64,000 nt of DNA. Source: Minisyncoccota bacterium. GTDB taxonomy: Bacteria > Patescibacteriota > Minisyncoccia > Phycocordibacterales > DATDWN01. The position numbers were made by a program, and so were the translations under genes. The notes under the pieces are model-generated. The model had not been told where the DNA came from, searched no databases, and saw nothing but the letters and a program-made list of their open reading frames with translations. How positions within the stretch are numbered: the stretch's first letter is position 1; the number at the start of each line of letters is the position of its first letter. The DNA is taken from contig JBAYWK010000001.1 of NCBI GenBank assembly GCA_041674105.1, positions 82,190 through 146,189 on the forward strand. Reading direction: 5' to 3'. Shown in pieces: positions 42,979 to 52,560 of this stretch.

Positions 42979-43596
42979 TTAATGTAACCTGTCAACCTCC
43001 CAAACCCTGCCAAAAATACTCCATCGTTCTAATATTTCTTTTTTACTTAATTTCATAAAATATCTATTATCTTCAGTCATCCTTTCATAATTTAAATGAG
43101 GAACCTTGTGAGTATCAAAAACATACAGATTATCTTCGTCATATCCATACACAAACATCACGTGATCCAATAAGCCAAAAAATCCTAGGGATATGTCTAT
43201 TCCTGTAGCAGATCCATTTTCAATATTATGTTCAATTATTTTGATAGCATTATCGTAAGTCATCCTAGAAAACAATATGGATTCAAAAAAATCAAAAAAA
43301 TCATTTATCATGTGACTATTTATCTTCAGAACTAGATCATTTTCTTTTAAAAACCCAGGAAGCTTATAGAATTGTAACTGAGTCCACGCTAAAAATGCCG
43401 GCAAAGAAAAACCAAACGAATTAGATCTTTCTATTTCCACTATACTGCAATCTATAGGGTTAAATTTTCTAGGTAGATAGTAATTAAGAGCGTAATACAT
43501 AAAATCTCTACCGCATTTATTTTTAACAGTAGCACCATTGATTTTTTCTCTTTGGACAAAACCAGTACTATTTATTTCAACAGGTAAAGAAATCAT
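42979..43596 (-). CDS. Papain-fold (C39-like / BtrH-like) cysteine peptidase domain hypothetical protein.
   Basis: Cys (KCGRDFMYYALNYY), His (LDHVMFVYGYDED) and Asp are spaced as in Peptidase_C39-like domains. The assignment is tentative. Confidence 0.35.
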   Translation of the reverse strand: MISLPVEINSTGFVQREKINGATVKNKCGRDFMYYALNYYLPRKFNPIDCSIVEIERSNSFGFSLPAFLAWTQLQFYKLPGFLKENDLVLKINSHMINDFFDFFESILFSRMTYDNAIKIIEHNIENGSATGIDISLGFFGLLDHVMFVYGYDEDNLYVFDTHKVPHLNYERMTEDNRYFMKLSKKEILERWSIFGRVWEVDRLH

Positions 43597-43637
43597 TATT
43601 AAATTATATCAAAAACAGATTCTAACTAGTACGTTTT

Positions 43638-43657
43638 TGTGCGGGTAGGGAGAATCG
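43638..43657. repeat. 20-bp direct duplicate of the 3' end of tRNA-Gly (att-like core).
   Basis: tgtgcgggtagggagaatcg is identical to the 3' terminus of the tRNA-Gly genes at 43826 and 48155. It lies 168 bp from the intact tRNA-Gly(UCC). Confidence 0.75.
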
Positions 43658-43825
43658 GTCAGGAATAATTTTGATTCCGTCGAATCAAAATTTTCACGAC
43701 CCTGACTCGCGACCCATCGTGCTCGATGGGTACCCCGCTCCGTCTTTCGATTCTCTACGCAAAGCCATACTATGGCTTTGCTCTAACCGCATAAGCGAAA
43801 AGCGCCCTAAGGTGCCTTTCGTCTG

Positions 43826-43896
43826 TGCGGGTAGGGAGAATCGAACTCCCGTATACTGCTTGGAAGGCAGTCATTCTACCACTAAACTATACCCGC
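43826..43896 (-). tRNA. tRNA-Gly (anticodon UCC).
   Basis: A 71-nt cloverleaf GCGGGUAUAGUUUAGUGGUAGAAUGACUGCCUUCCAAGCAGUAUACGGGAGUUCGAUUCUCCCUACCCGCA has a 7-bp acceptor and the T-loop GUUCGAUUC. Confidence 0.85.
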
Positions 43897-43945
43897 AAAT
43901 TTAAAACATAGTTAATATATCAAAAAAAACCGTCCTCTGCAATTT

Positions 43946-44130
43946 AGAGCCTATCTCCAATCTCGCATCAGAATAAAATGCCAAAATTTTCAGGCAAAAA
44001 TCAAACTGGAAGCCGAAGTGTATTGATATACAATAAGGATGAAGTGAAGGTTTTTGACGGAAATTTTGCTATTTTAACTAATGAGCTATATTCTTAGCTC
44101 TTTTTTGTGTCGAGATTGGAGATAGGCTCT
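43946..44130. repeat. 20-bp perfect inverted repeat pair enclosing about 145 bp that contain a 39-codon ORF and a hairpin terminator.
   Basis: agagcctatctccaatctcg (43946-43965) pairs with cgagattggagataggctct (44111-44130). The inner ORF at 43978..44097 encodes MPKFSGKNQTGSRSVLIYNKDEVKVFDGNFAILTNELYS. The hairpin gagctatattcttagctc is followed by a T-run. Confidence 0.6.
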
Positions 44131-44150
44131 ATGATGATATAATACTAAAT

Positions 44151-45302
44151 ATGTTAACTAATCTTATAAAAATTAGTTTATTTTTTTCTCTAGCTATACT
44201 TGTATGGTTTATATATCCTAGAGAAGTAAATAAAAACCTACCTGTAGTAGGAGAAGAATTGAAGATAGAATTCCCCGAAGAAACCTTTGATACAGACACA
44301 GTTTTAGAAGAAAAAGTTAAAACTGAAAACCAAACAAAAGAAGAAAATAAAGCTAAACCTACTGTAGAAAAAATTGAAGTAGTGTCGAAAAAAACTTCGT
44401 CAGATAACCAAAATCCAGTAAACTCAGAACAACCAAAAAATACCAACTCAACAAAAGAGTCGGGAGATTTTGTAGAATTGAATGAGAAATCCAGAAAATC
44501 AATCGTAAATATCTTGTGTAAAACAAATGGAAATGACCTTTCTACTATTACAGGCACAGGAGTTATCATAGATCCTCGTGGAATAATCCTTACAAATGCT
44601 CATATAGGACAATACTTCCTTTTGAAAGATTTTAAATTCAAAAACTTTGTAGAATGTACTATTCGCACAGGAGAACCTGCTTATCCAAAATACGAAGCTG
44701 AGCTAGTATATATTTCTCCAGAATGGGTAGAGGCAAACAAATCAATACTAACGGAAGAAAATCCTAAAGGCACAGGCGAATATGATTTTGCTTTTCTTAG
44801 AATAACCAAGGCTATAGATGGAACCGTACTACCTTCATTTGATTATATAAAACCTGACACAAGAGAAATAATAGATGAAGGAGAACCTGTCTTACTAGCC
44901 TCCTACCCTGCCGGATTCCTTGGAAGTATTTCTGTTATCCAAGGACTATACATAACCAGTGCAGTCACAACTGTTCAAAAAATATTTACATTTAAAGAGA
45001 CAACTATTGATTTACTTTCAGTTGGAGGAACTGTTTTGTCACAAAAAGGATCTTCAGGTGGAGCCGTAATAGACCGATACGGTAAACTTATTGGTCTAAT
45101 TTCTACAAGTTCAGATGGAGACACCACAAGTGAAAGAGACCTACGAGCTATCACAATGACTCATATAAACAGAAGTTTAAAAGAGTCTTTTGGTGGTTTA
45201 AACTCTTTCCTTGGTCTAAATATGGAAACTACAGCAGACATTTTCAAAAAAACACTCTTCCCTTCCCTTTCACAACTTATAATAAATGAATTGAAAAAAT
45301 AA
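44151..45302 (+). CDS. Trypsin-like (S1/HtrA-like) secreted serine protease without PDZ domains.
   Basis: A signal anchor is followed by His (ILTNAHI), Asp (DFAFLRI) and Ser (GSSGGAV) catalytic motifs. Confidence 0.75.
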   Translation: MLTNLIKISLFFSLAILVWFIYPREVNKNLPVVGEELKIEFPEETFDTDTVLEEKVKTENQTKEENKAKPTVEKIEVVSKKTSSDNQNPVNSEQPKNTNSTKESGDFVELNEKSRKSIVNILCKTNGNDLSTITGTGVIIDPRGIILTNAHIGQYFLLKDFKFKNFVECTIRTGEPAYPKYEAELVYISPEWVEANKSILTEENPKGTGEYDFAFLRITKAIDGTVLPSFDYIKPDTREIIDEGEPVLLASYPAGFLGSISVIQGLYITSAVTTVQKIFTFKETTIDLLSVGGTVLSQKGSSGGAVIDRYGKLIGLISTSSDGDTTSERDLRAITMTHINRSLKESFGGLNSFLGLNMETTADIFKKTLFPSLSQLIINELKK

Positions 45303-47001: not shown

Positions 47002-47050
47002 GTCGGGGCGCCGAGAATCGAACTCGGGCCACATCCCTTCGGGCCACAGA
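47002..47050 (-). repeat. Partial duplicate of the 3' half of tRNA-Pro (variable region, T-arm and acceptor 3' strand).
   Basis: On the minus strand the sequence is …GUGGCCCGAGUUCGAUUCUCGGCGCCCCGAC. It differs from the intact tRNA-Pro by 1-2 nt. Confidence 0.7.
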
Positions 47051-47084
47051 AACATAATATGTTTCTGGAATTATTTGAAACTAG

Positions 47085-47157
47085 GTCGGGGTGCCGAGAA
47101 TCGAACTCGGGCCGCATGTTCCCAAAACATGAATACTACCTCTATACTACACCCCGA
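47085..47157 (-). tRNA. tRNA-Pro (anticodon UGG).
   Basis: CGGGGUGUAGUAUAGAGGUAGUAUUCAUGUUUUGGGAACAUGCGGCCCGAGUUCGAUUCUCGGCACCCCGA. The anticodon loop is UUUGGGA. Confidence 0.85.
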
Positions 47158-47185
47158 CGCAATTTCAAATAATTCCCCAAAAATG

Positions 47186-47210
47186 CATACTACCTCTATA
47201 CTACACCCCG
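47186..47210 (-). repeat. Partial duplicate of the 5' half of tRNA-Pro (acceptor 5' strand, D-arm and anticodon 5' stem-loop).
   Basis: On the minus strand the sequence is CGGGGUGUAGUAUAGAGGUAGUAUGCAUUUUUGGGG…. Confidence 0.7.
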
Positions 47211-47253
47211 AATATAACAATTAGAAGTCTACCATAAATAATATAAATAACAA

Positions 47254-47664
47254 TTACAAGATAATATCTTCTAACATATCTATATCTAAAAGGTTTTTTT
47301 CTTTATCCAAATAGACAGTAATCACATCAAACTGCCAATCTGTTTCATCTGAAACATCTTTTTCTAGTAAATAAGACTGGATTATTCTACTCAGTCTTTG
47401 TAGTTTCCAAGGATGAATATTGTCTTCAGGCCTATATTCATCCTTATTATTCAAATACCCTATTTCACGGGAAACAGTTTTAACTTCAATAAAATGAATA
47501 ACCTCCCCTTTTTTGACAATAATATCTATCTCTCCCCATTTTTTATAATAGTTTCTTTCTATCACTTTGAAACCTTTGTCCTTTATAAATTTACAAGCAA
47601 GATCCTCTCCTTTTACACCTACAATCTGTCTATCTGTTGGATTTTTAATATCCTTGTTATACAT
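47254..47664 (-). CDS. YraN-family (UPF0102) PD-(D/E)xK endonuclease-like protein.
   Basis: …VGVKGEDLACKFIKDKGFKVIERNYY…GEIDIIVKKGEVIHFIEVKT…. Confidence 0.75.
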   Translation of the reverse strand: MYNKDIKNPTDRQIVGVKGEDLACKFIKDKGFKVIERNYYKKWGEIDIIVKKGEVIHFIEVKTVSREIGYLNNKDEYRPEDNIHPWKLQRLSRIIQSYLLEKDVSDETDWQFDVITVYLDKEKNLLDIDMLEDIIL

Positions 47665-47906
47665 GAAACTATTTGTTTAGGTTTAACTTACCCTAAAGTA
47701 TAGCAAATCAAGCCAGGAATTGGCCATTAAGTTTCATGTATAACACTTTAGAGTTTTCACGTGAAACACTTATGTATTTCATTAAAAAAGGACACTAAGA
47801 AAGGCTGTCTGTTTTTGATAAAGCTATATTCAAAGCCATATAATGTTTAATAGACTTAGCGCTTCTCTTATAAGTCTTAAAACTCAAGATCTTGTCCTTA
47901 ATACAC

Positions 47907-47927
47907 ATTTCCACAGGGTTATCCACA
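47907..47927 (+). promoter_or_regulatory. Tandem DnaA-box-like sites (TTTCCACA next to a perfect TTATCCACA) in a 450-bp AT-rich non-coding region.
   Basis: acacatttccacagggTTATCCACAtatatatgg. Other perfect TTATCCACA sites lie at 6904-6912, 50363-50371 and 62968-62976, all intergenic. Confidence 0.35.
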
Positions 47928-48154
47928 TATATATGGTAATATGTTGCATAATACTAGTTCTCGAGATTACGAGATTTGACTAAAACAAAGGTTTTTTTAA
48001 AGAGATTAGGAAATAAGAGATAAATTATAATATAAGATTATAAAGGACATTTGAGTAAGGAGAACCGAAGCTAAGATAATTTCCTCGACGTCTAAGGGAG
48101 AATGAGTCACAAAAGTATAGTCTTAAAATGATTCGCGTTTTAATCCTTATTTTG

Positions 48155-48225
48155 TGCGGGTAGGGAGAATCGAACTCCCGTCTCATCCTTGGCAAGGATG
48201 TGTTCTACCACTAAACCATACCCGC
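48155..48225 (-). tRNA. tRNA-Gly (anticodon GCC).
   Basis: GCGGGUAUGGUUUAGUGGUAGAACACAUCCUUGCCAAGGAUGAGACGGGAGUUCGAUUCUCCCUACCCGCA. Confidence 0.85.
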
Positions 48226-48412
48226 GAACTTGATTATTATACACGAGCAAAAAATAAAAACAAAATTGGAAGATCTTGTGGTCACAAGTAATTTTGGTTC
48301 CGTATAACCAAAATTCTTTCGACCCCACTTCGCCTGTTTTTCTGGTTAAAAACATGGCTCCGGCCGGCACAAGTATCAAAAAACATGGAGCAGTCCATAT
48401 TTTTCTGTCTTG

Positions 48413-48484
48413 TGCCCCCGCCAGGAATTGAACCCAGATCAACGGTTCCGAAGACCGCTACTTTATCCGTTAAGCTACGGGGGC
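48413..48484 (-). tRNA. tRNA-Arg (anticodon UCG).
   Basis: GCCCCCGUAGCUUAACGGAUAAAGUAGCGGUCUUCGGAACCGUUGAUCUGGGUUCAAUUCCUGGCGGGGGCA. Confidence 0.85.
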
Positions 48485-48569
48485 AATACTAATATCATAT
48501 ATGTTTTCAAACTGGTTTACTAGTAGTAGCTTTATAAAATATAGCTAAAATGATAGTATTATTTTTGAT

Positions 48570-50042
48570 ATGAATAAGAATTTCAACATACCAAAAGAGG
48601 TTTCATATGTAACAGAAGAGCTAGAAAAGGCTGGTTTTGAGGCTTTTCTGGTAGGTGGGTGTGTTAGAGACCTTATCTTAGGTAAAAAACCTAAAGACTG
48701 GGATGTTACAACAAACGCAACCCCCGAAGAAATTTCTCCGATATTTAAAGATACTTTTTATGAAAATGACTTTGGAACTGTTGGTATAGTGAATGAAGAT
48801 GTAGATGACCCTAGTCTAAAAGTTATAGAAGTAACTCCTTACAGGGTAGAATCAGGTTATTCAGATAATAGACATCCTGACAAAGTTAGTTTTAGCCAAA
48901 ATATAGAGGATGATCTACAAAGAAGGGACTTCACAATGAACGCTCTTGCATATTCTGTCCTTGATAAAAAACTTGTTGACCTTTATAAAGGACAGGATGA
49001 TATAAAGGACAAAATAATAAGAACGGTAGGGAAGCCGGAGGAAAGATTTAAAGAAGACGGCCTTAGAATACTCAGGGCTGTTAGATTTCAATCTGAGCTA
49101 GGATTTGAAATAGAAAAAGAAACAGAAAAAGCTATTCTAGAGAATTCTAATTTACTAAAGAACATATCTAAAGAGAGAATAGGGGAGGAATTTACAAAAA
49201 TTATTATGTCAAACTCTCCTATGCTAGGAATCTCTAAAATGAAGAGTTTGGGTATACTAGAGTATGTCGTACCTGAATTATTAGAATCTATTGGTGTAGA
49301 GCAAAATAAGGCCCATTCATACGATGTCTGGGAGCATCTACTTAGATCTGTTCAACATTCTGCCGATAAAAAATACCCTTTGGAAATAAGGTTGTCTGCC
49401 TTGTTTCATGATATATCCAAACCTCACAGTAGGAGATGGGGTAAGGAACAAAGCCAATGGACTTTCTACGGACATGAGGTCATTGGTTCACGTGTAACAA
49501 AAAAGATACTAGAAAGATTAAAATATCCAAAGAAAGTAATAGATAAAGTATCTAAGATGGTTAGATGGCATATGTTTTTCTCTGATACTGAGCAAATAAC
49601 CCTTTCTGCTGTGAGGAGAATGATTGTTAATGTCGGTAGGGAGAATATATGGGACCTGATGGATCTAAGGATATGTGACCGAATAGGAACAGGTAGACCC
49701 AAAGAAGACCCTTACAGATTGAGAAAATACCATTCTATGATAGAAGAAGCCCTTAGAGATCCTATATCTGTTGGAATGTTAAAAATAGATGGAAAAAGAA
49801 TAATGGATGTTACACATGTAACACCCGGACCTAAAATAGGGTATATGCTGCACGCTCTACTAGAAGAAGTTCTAGACGACCCAACAAAAAATACAGAGGA
49901 TTATCTTGAAAATAGAACACTGGAGCTTATAAATATGAGTGAAACTGATCTTAGAAAGCTTGGTGAGGAAGGTAAAAAGACCAGAGAAGAGTTGGATGAG
50001 GAGGAGATAAAGGAAATACGCAAGAAACACTGGGTTAAATAA
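48570..50042 (+). CDS. cca: CCA-adding enzyme / poly(A) polymerase-family tRNA nucleotidyltransferase with an HD domain.
   Basis: The head domain is FLVGGCVRDLILGKKPKDWDVTT and the HD motif is LFHDISKP. Confidence 0.85.
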   Translation: MNKNFNIPKEVSYVTEELEKAGFEAFLVGGCVRDLILGKKPKDWDVTTNATPEEISPIFKDTFYENDFGTVGIVNEDVDDPSLKVIEVTPYRVESGYSDNRHPDKVSFSQNIEDDLQRRDFTMNALAYSVLDKKLVDLYKGQDDIKDKIIRTVGKPEERFKEDGLRILRAVRFQSELGFEIEKETEKAILENSNLLKNISKERIGEEFTKIIMSNSPMLGISKMKSLGILEYVVPELLESIGVEQNKAHSYDVWEHLLRSVQHSADKKYPLEIRLSALFHDISKPHSRRWGKEQSQWTFYGHEVIGSRVTKKILERLKYPKKVIDKVSKMVRWHMFFSDTEQITLSAVRRMIVNVGRENIWDLMDLRICDRIGTGRPKEDPYRLRKYHSMIEEALRDPISVGMLKIDGKRIMDVTHVTPGPKIGYMLHALLEEVLDDPTKNTEDYLENRTLELINMSETDLRKLGEEGKKTREELDEEEIKEIRKKHWVK

Positions 50043-50411
50043 TAAAAAAAACCGCTCAATCATGAGCGAAGTTTAGGGATCGCAATGATTAGAGACGGTT
50101 TGGGTAAAAGTATTACTCAGTAAGATATTAGTACGGATACAATATCGCAAAAATTAAAAATAGTAGATAAAAATGAGGATATTTTGATCTTCTATACCAA
50201 TAAAAACCAAATAATCTTTTAAGTAGAGGCCCTGCAGAGCCAAAAGTACACTATACACTATGCTTTTTAAAGAACAAATATCATTTTTGTCCGGGGTTTA
50301 TCGGACATCAATGAAGATCTGAGGTTATTATAGCAACCATAAAAGACTAGTAAAGGACTACCTTGTGGATAACTGTCTTATATAAAAAATATATAGGACA
50401 TTTAATGTCTT

Positions 50412-51215
50412 TTATATATTCAGATTTATATTTAACTCAACAGGACAGTGATCAGATCCCATGACTTTAGGTAAAATATTCGAACTTTTTATTTTTTTCA
50501 ATAGTTTTTTGCTAGTAAAAAAATAATCTATTCTCCAACCAACATTCCTTGCTCTAGCATTGGCCCAATGTGTCCACCAAGTATAGTGACCATTACCTTT
50601 TGTAAATAATCTGAAAGTGTCTGTAAAACCATTCTCTATTATTTTATCTATTCCAAGCCGTTCTTCTTTTGTAAAACCATGCTCTTCTTCATTTTGTTTT
50701 GGGTTTGCTAAATCATCTTCTGTATGTGCAACATTTAAATCACCACAAAAAATTACAGGCTTACTTTTTTCAAGATTATTTACATATTCTAGAAAAGCCG
50801 GATCCCATTTTTTGTGTCTCAAAGAAAGTCTGCTCAAATCGCCTTTGGAGTTTGGGGTATAGACAGTCACTAAATAAAACCCAGAATACTCAGCTGTCAA
50901 AACCCTTCCTTCTTTGTTTGGATCTCCGTACTGATCCTTTTCAATTTTATATTTTTTAACTATGTCTTCTGGAAAATTGGATGAAACTGAAATAGGTTTT
51001 TTCTTACTGAAAATAGCCGTGCCACTATATCCCGCCTTGTCCGCTGAGTTCCAATATTCTTCATAATCTTTCAAATCAACTTCATTTTGATCCTGCTTGG
51101 CTTTGGTTTCTTGGAGACATATTATGTCTGGGTCTATTTCTTTGAGAAAGGGGACGAAGAGTCCTTTTTTATTAACTGCTCTTATTCCATTTACGTTCCA
51201 AGAAATTATTTTCAT
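50412..51215 (-). CDS. xth: Exodeoxyribonuclease III (AP endonuclease).
   Basis: MKIISWNVNGIRA…DIICLQETK…SDHCPV. Confidence 0.9.
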   Translation of the reverse strand: MKIISWNVNGIRAVNKKGLFVPFLKEIDPDIICLQETKAKQDQNEVDLKDYEEYWNSADKAGYSGTAIFSKKKPISVSSNFPEDIVKKYKIEKDQYGDPNKEGRVLTAEYSGFYLVTVYTPNSKGDLSRLSLRHKKWDPAFLEYVNNLEKSKPVIFCGDLNVAHTEDDLANPKQNEEEHGFTKEERLGIDKIIENGFTDTFRLFTKGNGHYTWWTHWANARARNVGWRIDYFFTSKKLLKKIKSSNILPKVMGSDHCPVELNINLNI

Positions 51216-51251
51216 TTTTTTATATTATCACAATTATTCTGCTTAATTGTT

Positions 51252-52184
51252 TTATTCTCCCTTACTATGAAACTTTTTATGAATATCCTTTAAATGCTTA
51301 TCTGTAACATGAGTGTATATCTGTGTTGTTCCAATATTAGCATGACCCAAAAGGGCTTGGACGGAGCGGAGGTCTGCGCCGTTGGATAAAAGGTCTGTGG
51401 CAAAAAGATGTCGCATCATATGGGGAGTAACTTTTTTTGATATTCCAGCCTTTATTGCCAATTGTTTTACTATTCTTTCTACTGATCTCTTTGTCAAACC
51501 CATATCTTCTCCCTTTCTAGAAATCTTTTTTGGAGAATTTAGAGAAACTTTTATAAATAAAGCATCGTCCATATCTTTTCTTTTTGATAAATAATCTTTT
51601 AGGACTCTTTTTGCTTTGTCAGAAATGAAAACAACACGAACCTTTCCACCTTTTCCACGAATAGATATTTCATCGGAGTGAAGATCTATATCTCTAGGTA
51701 AGGCACACAGCTCAGAGACACGAAGTCCTGTTGAAAAAAGAAGCTCCAGTATAGCTCTATCTCTGAAATTCTTTAAATCATTTCCAGAAGGAGAAGAGAG
51801 TAGCCTTTTGAGCTCTGTATCGGTTATCAAATCCAAGGATCTTTCGGAGACTTTTGCCAGCTCAATCCTCTCGGCTGGTAAAGTTTTGACTTCCTGCCTA
51901 GCCATATATTTTAGAAACGCTCTGAGAGCTATCAAATAATAGTTTTGAGTCTTTCTGCTGAGTGTTTCATTTAGTTTTCCTAAATTTTTTAAAGGCTGTC
52001 TGTTTAGCCAAAGACGAAACTCTCTGACGGAGGTATCAGTGATATCAGAAGGGGAGTCTTTCTTTAAGTAATCCAGGAAACGAGTCAAATATCTATCGTA
52101 GTTTTCAACAGTTTTAACAGAACGACCTCTTTCTATTTCTATATATTCGAGAAATTGTTGTTTTAATTGTTTAAGAGAAGCCAT
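51252..52184 (-). CDS. Tyrosine recombinase XerC/XerD-like.
   Basis: The C-terminal catalytic motifs are …HMMRHLFATDLLSNGADLRSVQALLGHANIGTTQIYTHV. The start was trimmed to the MASLKQ Met. Confidence 0.85.
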   Translation of the reverse strand: MASLKQLKQQFLEYIEIERGRSVKTVENYDRYLTRFLDYLKKDSPSDITDTSVREFRLWLNRQPLKNLGKLNETLSRKTQNYYLIALRAFLKYMARQEVKTLPAERIELAKVSERSLDLITDTELKRLLSSPSGNDLKNFRDRAILELLFSTGLRVSELCALPRDIDLHSDEISIRGKGGKVRVVFISDKAKRVLKDYLSKRKDMDDALFIKVSLNSPKKISRKGEDMGLTKRSVERIVKQLAIKAGISKKVTPHMMRHLFATDLLSNGADLRSVQALLGHANIGTTQIYTHVTDKHLKDIHKKFHSKGE

Positions 52185-52293
52185 ATTACTAAAAGTATAC
52201 CACAAAACCGTGTCGCACAATATTTTTGATCTCAAAAGAAGCTTTTTTAATAGATATTGCAAAAAATAGTCATTTATGCTATTCTCTACAGAC

Positions 52294-52560
52294 ATGCTTG
52301 CAAAAACAAAGAAATCAAGAATAATCAAGGAAGTACAGGTTCATGACACCGATACTGGCTCTCCTGAGGTTCAAATAGCTATTCTAAATAAGCGCATAGA
52401 CGAGCTTGCTTCTCATTTAAAGAAAAATAACAAAGATAACCACTCAAGAAGAGGTTTACTCCAAATGGTGGCTGATAGAAAGACTCATATGAAGTATCTA
52501 GAAAAGAAAAATCCAAAAAGATACAGTGCTCTTGTAAAAAAGCTAGGTTTGAAGAAATAG
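52294..52560 (+). CDS. rpsO: 30S ribosomal protein S15.
   Basis: MLAKTKKSRIIKEVQVHDTDTGSPEVQIAILNKRIDELASHLKKN…. Confidence 0.9.
   Translation: MLAKTKKSRIIKEVQVHDTDTGSPEVQIAILNKRIDELASHLKKNNKDNHSRRGLLQMVADRKTHMKYLEKKNPKRYSALVKKLGLKK

Follow-up and report, generated by a model that had tools for sequence, protein, structure and literature searches.

The segment behind the tRNA-Gly(UCC) gene in the 64,000-nucleotide stretch of DNA analysed here (referred to as the window) is an intact member of a large family of structured elements linked to tRNA and tmRNA genes in Patescibacteria, and the 20-nt repeat of the tRNA end is an integral border of this element; both parts of this assignment are well supported. 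The family is apparently undescribed so far, since neither an Rfam family nor a description in the literature searched was found, and work outside the searchable library may be missed. The original prediction had offered two readings of the segment, either a remnant of an excised or deleted element or a miniature integrative element. The former is at variance with a full-length, conserved family member that has a structured, covarying core and was matched by the core covariance model (CM R1) from 43640 to 43758 with 95.5 bits (E=2.8e-24, model positions 1-122). The latter is the better of the two, as tandem, hybrid and decayed copies of the element exist.

The host of the window is a patescibacterial chromosome. 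The genes of the region would encode, as read from their translations, trigger factor, ClpP, RNase Y, HU, a Xer-like recombinase and a CCA-adding-type enzyme, and a prephenate dehydratase and a trypsin-like protease were assigned by Pfam. The tRNA-Gly(UCC) gene was placed at 43825/6-43896 on the minus strand by both ARAGORN and Rfam. By a repeat search of the window, the direct repetition of the last 20 nt of this gene, which had been predicted, was found to be exact (43638-43657 and 43824-43843, reading TGTGCGGGTAGGGAGAATCG on the plus strand). Its sequence in the direction of the tRNA is CGAUUCUCCCUACCCGCACA; it extends from C56 in the T-loop to the discriminator plus 2 nt, and thus consists of the last 18 nt of the tRNA and two trailer bases. 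The starts of the two 20-nt copies are 186 nt apart, so that 166 nt are enclosed rather than the 168 bp given at first. The 18-nt core of the repeat occurs three times in the window, the third occurrence being the 3' end of tRNA-Gly(GCC) at 48155-48172. Three 18-nt matches were reached by no shuffle (expected count 0.00), and a chance repeat was thereby ruled out. The 20-nt repeat, the 21-nt inverted repeat of the neighbouring cassette, the 39-codon ORF within that cassette and its terminator-like hairpin were all far above chance.

The 166-nt segment has a G+C content of 51-55%, against about 30% for the genome, and its fold in the window has an energy of -85 kcal/mol (z=-7.7). In this fold the distal repeat pairs with the 5' stretch GCGGUUAG ... 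GAGAAUCG, so the segment holds an inverted as well as a direct copy of the tRNA end. This inverted copy inside the segment, a defining feature of the element, was absent from the original prediction. Apart from a 77-codon ORF, which is on the opposite strand and overlaps the tRNA, the segment has only ORFs of 32-34 codons without coding signs. At the gathering threshold of Rfam 15, four tRNAs were matched in the window and nothing was returned for the core; at E<=10, the matches to the core within 43400-44400 were at chance level, the best being ceN48 with 17 bits against a cut-off of 70. No tmRNA or permuted tRNA was called in the window by ARAGORN. The parts of the element and of its neighbourhood are listed in the table.

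Table. Positions of the tRNA-linked element, its parts and neighbouring features in the window.
Feature	Position	Strand	Basis
tRNA-Gly(UCC), intact, CCA not encoded	43825..43896	-	ARAGORN; Rfam tRNA 74 bits
X1, tRNA-proximal 20-nt repeat copy, T-loop C56 to discriminator plus CA	43824..43843	-	Repeat and sequence search
S, terminator-like spacer hairpin CGAAAGGCACC-UUAG-GGCGCUUUUCG in the interval between tRNA and element	43796..43821	-	MFE fold; terminator scan
X'a, GCGGUUAG, acceptor 3' strand of the tRNA in inverted form, with one mismatch; supplies the 5' side of the outer closing helix	43783..43790	-	Sequence, fold, family alignment
P2, hairpin splitting the inverted arm into halves; loop GUA in the window copy	43759..43781	-	Fold, covarying pairs
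X'b, GAGAAUCGAA, tRNA nt 54-63 in inverted form, covering T-loop and T-stem 3' strand; supplies the 5' side of helix P3	43746..43755	-	
Conserved three-way-junction core	43658..43745	-	CM R1, pair counts, conservation
Core P4, GAC/GUC; internal loop GGA/GA	43742-43744 with 43704-43706	-	
Core P5, hairpin	43709-43738	-	
Core P6, long hairpin with conserved bulged A	43658-43702	-	
X2, distal 20-nt repeat copy; 3' strand of the closing helices	43638..43657	-	
Second, degenerate core copy between tRNA-Arg(UCG) and tRNA-Gly(GCC)	48280..48364	-	CM R1
Palindromic cassette, 187 bp, bounded by perfect 21-bp inverted repeats	43945..44131	.	Repeats, fold, spacing
39-codon ORF in the cassette	43978..44097	+	Open reading frame

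For the first genome scan the pattern GAGAATCG-N(75-105)-CGATTCTCCCTACCCGC was used, by which 25 loci were obtained, nearly all from Patescibacteria MAGs (Paceibacteria groups and Saccharibacteria); in most of them the homologous segment lay directly after a tRNA-Gly gene. To remove the bias of this first pattern, a core-only pattern was run on metagenomes, and at least 120 loci were listed, nearly all with strong model matches. With the core covariance model many added copies were detected in the genome-scan loci, after tRNA-Pro and tRNA-Arg genes. A copy census over all DNA retrieved was done by using nhmmer and ARAGORN, with the covariance model also being used, and the family was found to comprise at least about 150 copies on 147 contigs (covariance model and nhmmer). 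For 115 of the 150 listed copies there is a same-strand tRNA gene no more than 150 nt upstream; between them these tRNAs represent 37 anticodon species and every one of the 20 amino acids, and several of the remaining listed copies are placed after tmRNA genes. A copy was present at about 19% of the tRNAs that had not been used for locus finding, and at about one quarter of the remaining tRNAs the tRNA's own end was repeated, inverted or direct, around other cores, which include at least a type II (loci L018, L026 and L014) and a type III (L031, L004 and L077). Two viral scans gave no true match, none of the three viral-contig matches to the core-only pattern had a model match, and nothing was returned by BLAST against phages and plasmids. 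The degenerate copy at the second position in the window was matched with 39.3 bits (E=1e-8, model positions 15-105); its T-loop arms are absent and its closing helix is short. The window possibly holds a relic of the element besides this degenerate copy.

The copies have a common order of parts, that is, tRNA nt 56 to the 3' end, a terminator-like hairpin, the inverted copy, an optional hairpin, the core and the direct copy. The arms are the 3' end of whichever tRNA (or tmRNA) is upstream, for example Pro or Arg, while the core stays homologous. The direct repeat has a median length of about 19 nt (usually 19-22 nt, range 6-79 nt), tracking the tRNA end, and it starts exactly at C56 and runs to the tRNA 3' end in 61 of 115 listed copies. 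The 5' inverted arm ends in ...TCGAA in all cases, which is the complement of U54-A58. The boundary at C56, together with the use of tmRNA genes, upholds the att-type part of the tyrosine-integrase signature that had been predicted, but no integrase lies nearby; since none was found in or next to the approximately 150 listed copies, insertion by a tyrosine integrase is not shown.

From an alignment of 19 copies a consensus fold was obtained, in which compensatory changes were present in 18 of 27 pairs. When 117 distinct copies were used, standard pairs were formed in 96.1% of the cells, in comparison with 30-43% when the partners were slid, and changes on both sides were seen in 20 of 24 pairs; the observed scores were reached by no shuffle. 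The sense (tRNA) strand was more stable than the antisense strand in all of the 91 copies compared, by a mean of 8.9 kcal/mol, and G-U and A-C pairs numbered 16 and 4, respectively. The antisense strand was therefore rejected as the functional strand (91 to 0). Unpaired bases are conserved in the GGA/GA internal loop, in the G-rich entry to P6 and at an invariant bulged A, with part of this conservation coming from the search pattern itself, which does not apply to the bulged A. The P2 hairpin is present in 71 of 92 copies, and 38 of these 71 have a CUGC loop.

Several observations bear on insertion and recombination. The two direct copies differ from each other in 33 of 75 cases; of these 33, 24 show better pairing of the inverted arm with the copy on the tRNA side, 9 show equal pairing with both and none shows better pairing with the distal copy. 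Several copies that are good in other respects (L007, L017 and L011b) have a truncated distal copy or 3' arm. Of 76 spacers inside the unit, 41 (54%) hold a terminator-like hairpin, in comparison with 15 of 76 after the unit (20%) and 13 of 69 after element-less tRNAs (19%), so the flank of the distal copy looks like ordinary host DNA and the hairpin looks element-borne. Perfect tandem units occur at L136 and L022, and heterogeneous tandems, consisting of diverged copies or of different core types, at L010, L011, L082, L031 and L084. At L093 a Gly-type unit is flanked by the 5' strand of a Pro T-stem and by a Pro 3' end, and this hybrid junction points to a crossover inside the T-loop. Mosaic arms are present in L004 and L024, and at L008 an identical core stands behind Gly and Pro with different arms. 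It was also considered that gene conversion could mimic the terminator enrichment, the hybrid junction of L093 and the 24-to-0 result for the arms.

The median core identity was 0.61 within a contig and likewise 0.61 between contigs; the copies of one genome thus differ from each other as much as copies of different genomes do, L008 with its identical core behind Gly and Pro being an exception. Grouping of the cores by tRNA type was looked for and not found, and recent transposition is therefore rare. Neither an integrase nor a transposase was found in or beside the approximately 150 listed copies, and mobile-element genes do not recur nearby. When the Xer-like protein of the window was used as a tblastn query, only the syntenic housekeeping gene was recovered, 1.8-4 kb off, at 6 of 148 loci. 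The comparison of occupied and empty sites that had been proposed as a check was done for close relatives, and no junction-spanning empty site was found among the 148 loci; among distant relatives, occupancy is patchy. The loci did not combine an identical arrangement everywhere with a repeat found nowhere else, the picture that had been named beforehand for a fixed scar, and the earlier idea is accordingly not refuted.

The explanation favoured here, to which an even chance is given, is that the element is a miniature non-autonomous unit whose only cargo is a structured RNA and which undergoes recombination with the cognate tRNA at the T-loop/3' segment. The unit would consist of the tRNA-end copy, the hairpin, the inverted copy and the core, and would enter the cognate tRNA gene by recombination at the T-loop/3' segment. 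The tRNA would be restored by the unit's own tRNA-end copy, a terminator would be brought along with it, and the distal copy X2 of the window would be the original tRNA 3' end, displaced by the insertion. Recombination between the two direct copies would result in deletion or tandem amplification of the unit. Because no recombinase is encoded nearby, it would have to act in trans. The core would probably be transcribed by read-through from the tRNA and fold as RNA; a terminator-like hairpin, which frequently intervenes after the tRNA, speaks against such read-through. Such a recombining unit jointly explains why the repeats begin at C56, why tmRNA genes are used as well, why a terminator lies inside the unit, and how the tandem copies, the hybrid at L093 and the 24-to-0 result arose. 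It has difficulties of its own. Either a single recombinase must serve 37 tRNA sequences or there must be lineages that are each tRNA-specific, and the purine-rich loop and three-way junction resemble a functional RNA more than an att site. The lack of an integrase nearby, of an occupied/empty pair and of copies on phages or plasmids, as well as the old, diverged paralogues, also count against it.

The deep conservation and the absence of mobility genes are explained better by the main rival of the recombining unit, a tRNA-scaffolded small-RNA gene that stays in place, in which the three-way-junction core would be the functional part and would be clamped by a helix resembling the stacked acceptor and T-stems of the tRNA next to it. 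Such an RNA would be made together with the tRNA and excised by tRNA-processing enzymes, and its arms would be kept identical to the tRNA by gene conversion and shared constraints and not by insertion. The covariation, the conserved loop nucleotides, the preference for the sense strand in 91 of 91 copies and the high G+C content despite the AT-rich genome are in line with it, as are the position of P2 at the place of the D and anticodon arms of a tRNA and the age and divergence of the paralogues within a genome. The Gly and Pro copies of L008, with an identical core and different arms, are also as expected from gene conversion. We nevertheless consider a stationary gene possible but doubtful. 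None of 33 cases shows the inverted arm departing from the tRNA sequence in step with the 3' arm of the element, and the latter arm is truncated in the good copies named above (L007, L017 and L011b). The helix extends into the trailer (CACA/UGUG), so no free acceptor end is left, and a terminator-like hairpin separates tRNA and element in 54%. Such a gene does not sit well with the hybrid junction of L093 or with the heterogeneous tandems, and the same arms surround at least three unrelated cores.

That the inverted arm stays complementary to the tRNA despite a decayed distal copy (24 to 0) would also suit a cis-acting switch, in which this arm pairs either with the 3' half of the tRNA, the precursor being unfolded, or with the distal copy, the core being closed; the core would be the sensor, and the element would gate the maturation of the cognate tRNA. 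The spacer hairpin abuts both arms, so that tRNA end, hairpin and inverted arm form one continuous helix, and the element is built as a junction domain in which the closing helix has a second possible partner. Such a switch is improbable all the same: palindrome-internal gene conversion gives the 24-to-0 result neutrally, a folded tRNA is difficult to invade, terminator-like hairpins would mostly halt transcription ahead of the inverted arm, the tandem and hybrid copies are left unexplained, and the switch would be one without a known ligand or protein. Least credible, and very unlikely, is a scar at tRNA-Gly from the integration of a larger island or prophage of which nearly everything was lost afterwards. 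Direct repetition of a tRNA 3' end from the T-loop onward is indeed the classical att signature, but the enclosed 166 nt are a full-length family member, the same size and parts recur at about 150 listed loci, island genes are found at none of these listed loci, and a covarying structure is not expected in common among random deletion remnants.

Beyond the recombining unit as such, it is conceivable though unlikely that the 17-21-nt inverted arm, a perfect complement of the cognate tRNA's 3' end, is a guide by which the cognate tRNA gene or transcript is found through base pairing, either for T-loop insertion or as a switchable anti-tRNA. If it were an insertion guide, host enzymes alone would suffice, and the element would be a nucleic-acid-guided, protein-less mobile element that is retargeted via changed arms. 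If it were an anti-tRNA switch, the distal copy would be the lid and the three-way-junction core the sensor, and translation would be controlled per tRNA in Patescibacteria.

Genomic islands and prophages with tyrosine integrases insert in tRNA and tmRNA genes at the T-loop sublocation. The element resembles them in its tRNA and tmRNA targets, in the direct repeat from the T-loop to the 3' end, which stands at the far border of the bounded segment as for an integrase-type att site, in the intact tRNA, in its own terminator-like hairpin, in the tandem arrays of different units and in the hybrid junction of L093. It differs from them in its size of about 130-190 bp, without an integrase or any other gene (by tblastn at 148 loci, none coding for an integrase was found within or next to the element), in its internal inverted tRNA-end copy and conserved structured core, and in being present at 37 tRNA species in one phylum with no phage or plasmid copies. 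Folded single-strand recombination sites are known from integrons (attC) and from the CTX phage, whose attP is used by XerCD. With these sites the element has in common the compensatory conservation of structure over drifting sequence, the strand asymmetry, a stem imitating a double-stranded target, and, as proposed here, non-autonomy with a recombinase in trans. Unlike them it has no IntI and no dif-like or GTTRRRY crossover, its boundary lies after U55 and not at G|TT, and it is a three-way junction with conserved purine loops and not a simple bulged hairpin. Identity with integron attC or with IS200/IS605-type ends was rejected, since the boundary lies after U55 and neither at G|TT nor at a TAM, IntI, TnpA and TnpB are absent nearby, and Rfam gave no match to HEARO or IS605-orfB.

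MITEs, REPINs and Correia repeats are similar to the element in size, in having terminal inverted repeats, in their intergenic position behind genes, in foldability upon transcription and in lacking a transposase. By contrast, the inverted repeats of the element copy the adjacent host tRNA end and change with the tRNA, there is no short fixed target duplication, and the core is conserved across classes of the phylum. A MITE or REPIN identity of the tRNA-linked element was rejected, because there are no element-specific terminal repeats, the direct repeat is of variable length (6-79 nt), and no genome has many copies that are nearly identical (median core identity 0.61). The tRNA-scaffolded RNAs (tmRNA, YrlA, mascRNA, and tRNA-snoRNA or tRNA-miRNA dicistrons) share with it a closing helix like an acceptor stem stacked on a T-stem and a same-strand tandem arrangement with a tRNA, and processing by tRNA enzymes is conceivable. 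The element differs from tRNA-like RNAs in having no T-loop/elbow, in a helix that extends into the trailer, in giving no Rfam match and in mimicking the exact sequence of the upstream tRNA. Identity with a tRNA-like RNA (tmRNA, YrlA, viral TLS or mascRNA) was dismissed, the T-loop being replaced by an extended helix and a junction.

Group I introns inside tRNA genes of Patescibacteria are inserted in the anticodon loop and have a catalytic core of at least about 200 nt (PMC13011429, the nearest paper found). A group I intron was excluded here, since the tRNA is uninterrupted, the element lies 3' of it, the core is about 90 nt long and there was no Intron_gpI match. The defining nucleotides of the K-turn, the hammerhead and group II domain V appear, on comparison by eye, to misfit the GGA/GA loop and the junction. 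Cis-regulation of a downstream gene was rejected, as the neighbours are housekeeping genes and vary by locus.

Patescibacteria have tiny genomes with little spare DNA, and yet about one fifth or more of their tRNA genes, and the tmRNA gene as well, have this module, which is G+C-rich, about 150 nt in length (about 185 bp for the unit of the window), folded and built around copies of the tRNA's own end. The family would add a widespread class of structured RNA or DNA to a phylum with few known non-coding RNAs, and would account for many of the tRNA 3'-fragment calls in Patescibacteria genomes. It would also be a simple system for the question of how tRNA genes draw insertions yet stay undamaged. 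If it is true that the arms act as guides or switches, a new means to target or control individual tRNAs would be at hand.

The cassette next to the tRNA-Gly gene is read as an orphan MITE-like insertion that is unrelated to the tRNA-linked element. A perfect 20-bp inverted repeat around a mini-ORF had been predicted there; the repeat is real and perfect, and it is one base longer, with arms of 21 nt (43945-43965 and 44111-44131) that are 100% complementary and 145 nt apart. The cassette folds into a single long hairpin (z=-8.5). The 39-codon ORF with the translation given earlier is present and is accompanied by a terminator-like hairpin (44083-44100), which is followed by TTTTTTGT. This ORF was absent from the called genes by exact-protein look-up and was without a Pfam match, and the recommended search for homologues was negative in 5.8 billion proteins (with the query padded to 42 aa) and by tblastn at 149 loci. 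It is probably spurious and not a gene, so that of the predicted cassette the discrete, bounded insertion stands and the gene does not.

As is usual for MITEs, the cassette has perfect terminal inverted repeats and is lacking at the orthologous site; further copies and a target-site duplication were not found, a possible TA being inseparable from the palindrome ends. The search for other copies of the inverted repeat, also suggested beforehand, yielded none in the window even with 3 mismatches, and other copies of the cassette were found neither in the 149 loci, except for L002 of the same strain, nor in viral contigs. The spacer between tRNA-Gly and the protease gene measures 254 nt in the window and 71 and 57 nt in L020 and L003, respectively, which are distant relatives with a protein identity of 39-41%; subtraction of the 187 bp of the cassette from 254 leaves 67. 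The promoter of the protease gene is split by the cassette, which lies exactly between its conserved -35-like GCAATT and its TGnTATAAT. Further copies of the cassette would be recognised by TAGAGCCTATCTCCAATCTCG, and an empty site would read GCAATT...TGATGATATAAT.

Within the same kind of tRNA-derived arms, at least two further conserved cores, designated types II and III, were found, and in some cases these were arranged in tandem with the type I core. The type II core is represented by GAAGCCGUUCUCCC...GGGUACUGAAnCUGUAAG and the type III core by GGGAGGGGnCGG...AACCGUGGGUU. A hybrid arrangement was found in the locus L093, in which a fragment consisting of the 5' strand of the tRNA-Pro T-stem and the 3' end of tRNA-Gly is followed by a Gly-type element and then by the 3' end of tRNA-Pro, with an intact tRNA-Pro about 90 nt ahead of the whole. 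Among the copies on contigs with tmRNA genes, those of L102, L106, L107, L138 and L069 lie directly behind the tmRNA gene and have arms derived from its 3' end, and that of L135 is separated from the tmRNA gene by another element.

Coordinates of cores, element copies and associated tRNA features
Feature	Sequence	Position	Strand	Remark
Type II core	L018	2469-2600
Type II core	L026	3280-3447
Type II core	L014	6998-7184
Type III core	L031	4615-4790
Type III core	L004, L077
Hybrid junction	L093	1487-1760	minus
Element, tmRNA contig	L102	845-979
Element, tmRNA contig	L106	2353-2470
Element, tmRNA contig	L138	294-411
Element, tmRNA contig	L107	1143-1261
Element, tmRNA contig	L069	1395-1511
Element, tmRNA contig	L135	1578-1693
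Degenerate type I core	window	48280-48364	minus	covariance model, 39 bits
tRNA-Pro(UGG)	window	47084-47156	minus	inside the stretch 47002-47211

The degenerate core copy of the window is placed between tRNA-Arg(UCG) and tRNA-Gly(GCC), lacks T-loop arms, is closed only by a short helix (CUUGU/ACAAG) and carries a repeat of about 6 nt of the tRNA trailer; the same subtype was also present in the relative L009, behind its tRNA-Arg(UCG). The site behind tRNA-Gly(GCC) is occupied by the element in most relatives. Downstream of this tRNA in the window, GTGACTCATTCTCCCTTAGAC at 48090-48110 (minus strand) is similar to the usual element end, GTGACCGATTCTCCCTACCCGC, and may be the relic of a lost element; the covariance model of the core gave no detection at this position. 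Gene order around the tRNA-Arg/tRNA-Gly cluster was kept between the window (47254-52328) and L012, L019, L020, L021, L025 and L027. The conserved neighbourhood includes a CCA-adding-type enzyme gene adjoining the tRNAs, a YraN-like gene and, 2-4 kb from the cluster, a Xer-like recombinase gene (56-65% identity between genomes).

The tRNA-Pro(UGG) gene is flanked on the minus strand by second copies of its own 5' half (47173-47211, 92% identical) and 3' part (47002-47034, 94% identical), and its acceptor stem is lengthened by a 35-nt inverted repeat (47059-47093 and 47150-47184). When the two outer pieces were joined by eye, a plausible cloverleaf with the anticodon GGG was obtained. The stretch looks like a tRNA-Pro(GGG) gene whose anticodon loop is split by an insert of about 190 nt bearing the whole tRNA-Pro(UGG). 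The two genes are separate in L009.

Two Logan contigs of the same strain as the window, L001 and L002, both break between about 43805 and 43858, where sequence is common to tRNA-Gly(UCC), tRNA-Gly(GCC) and the element, so element sites may be frequent break points of short-read assemblies. Ahead of both protein genes flanking the tRNA-Gly(UCC)/element region, an extended -10 box (TGATATAAT) was found (44135-44153 and 43594-43611), and leaderless mRNAs are suggested in the source organism because this box ends 7 nt before the ATG in both genes.
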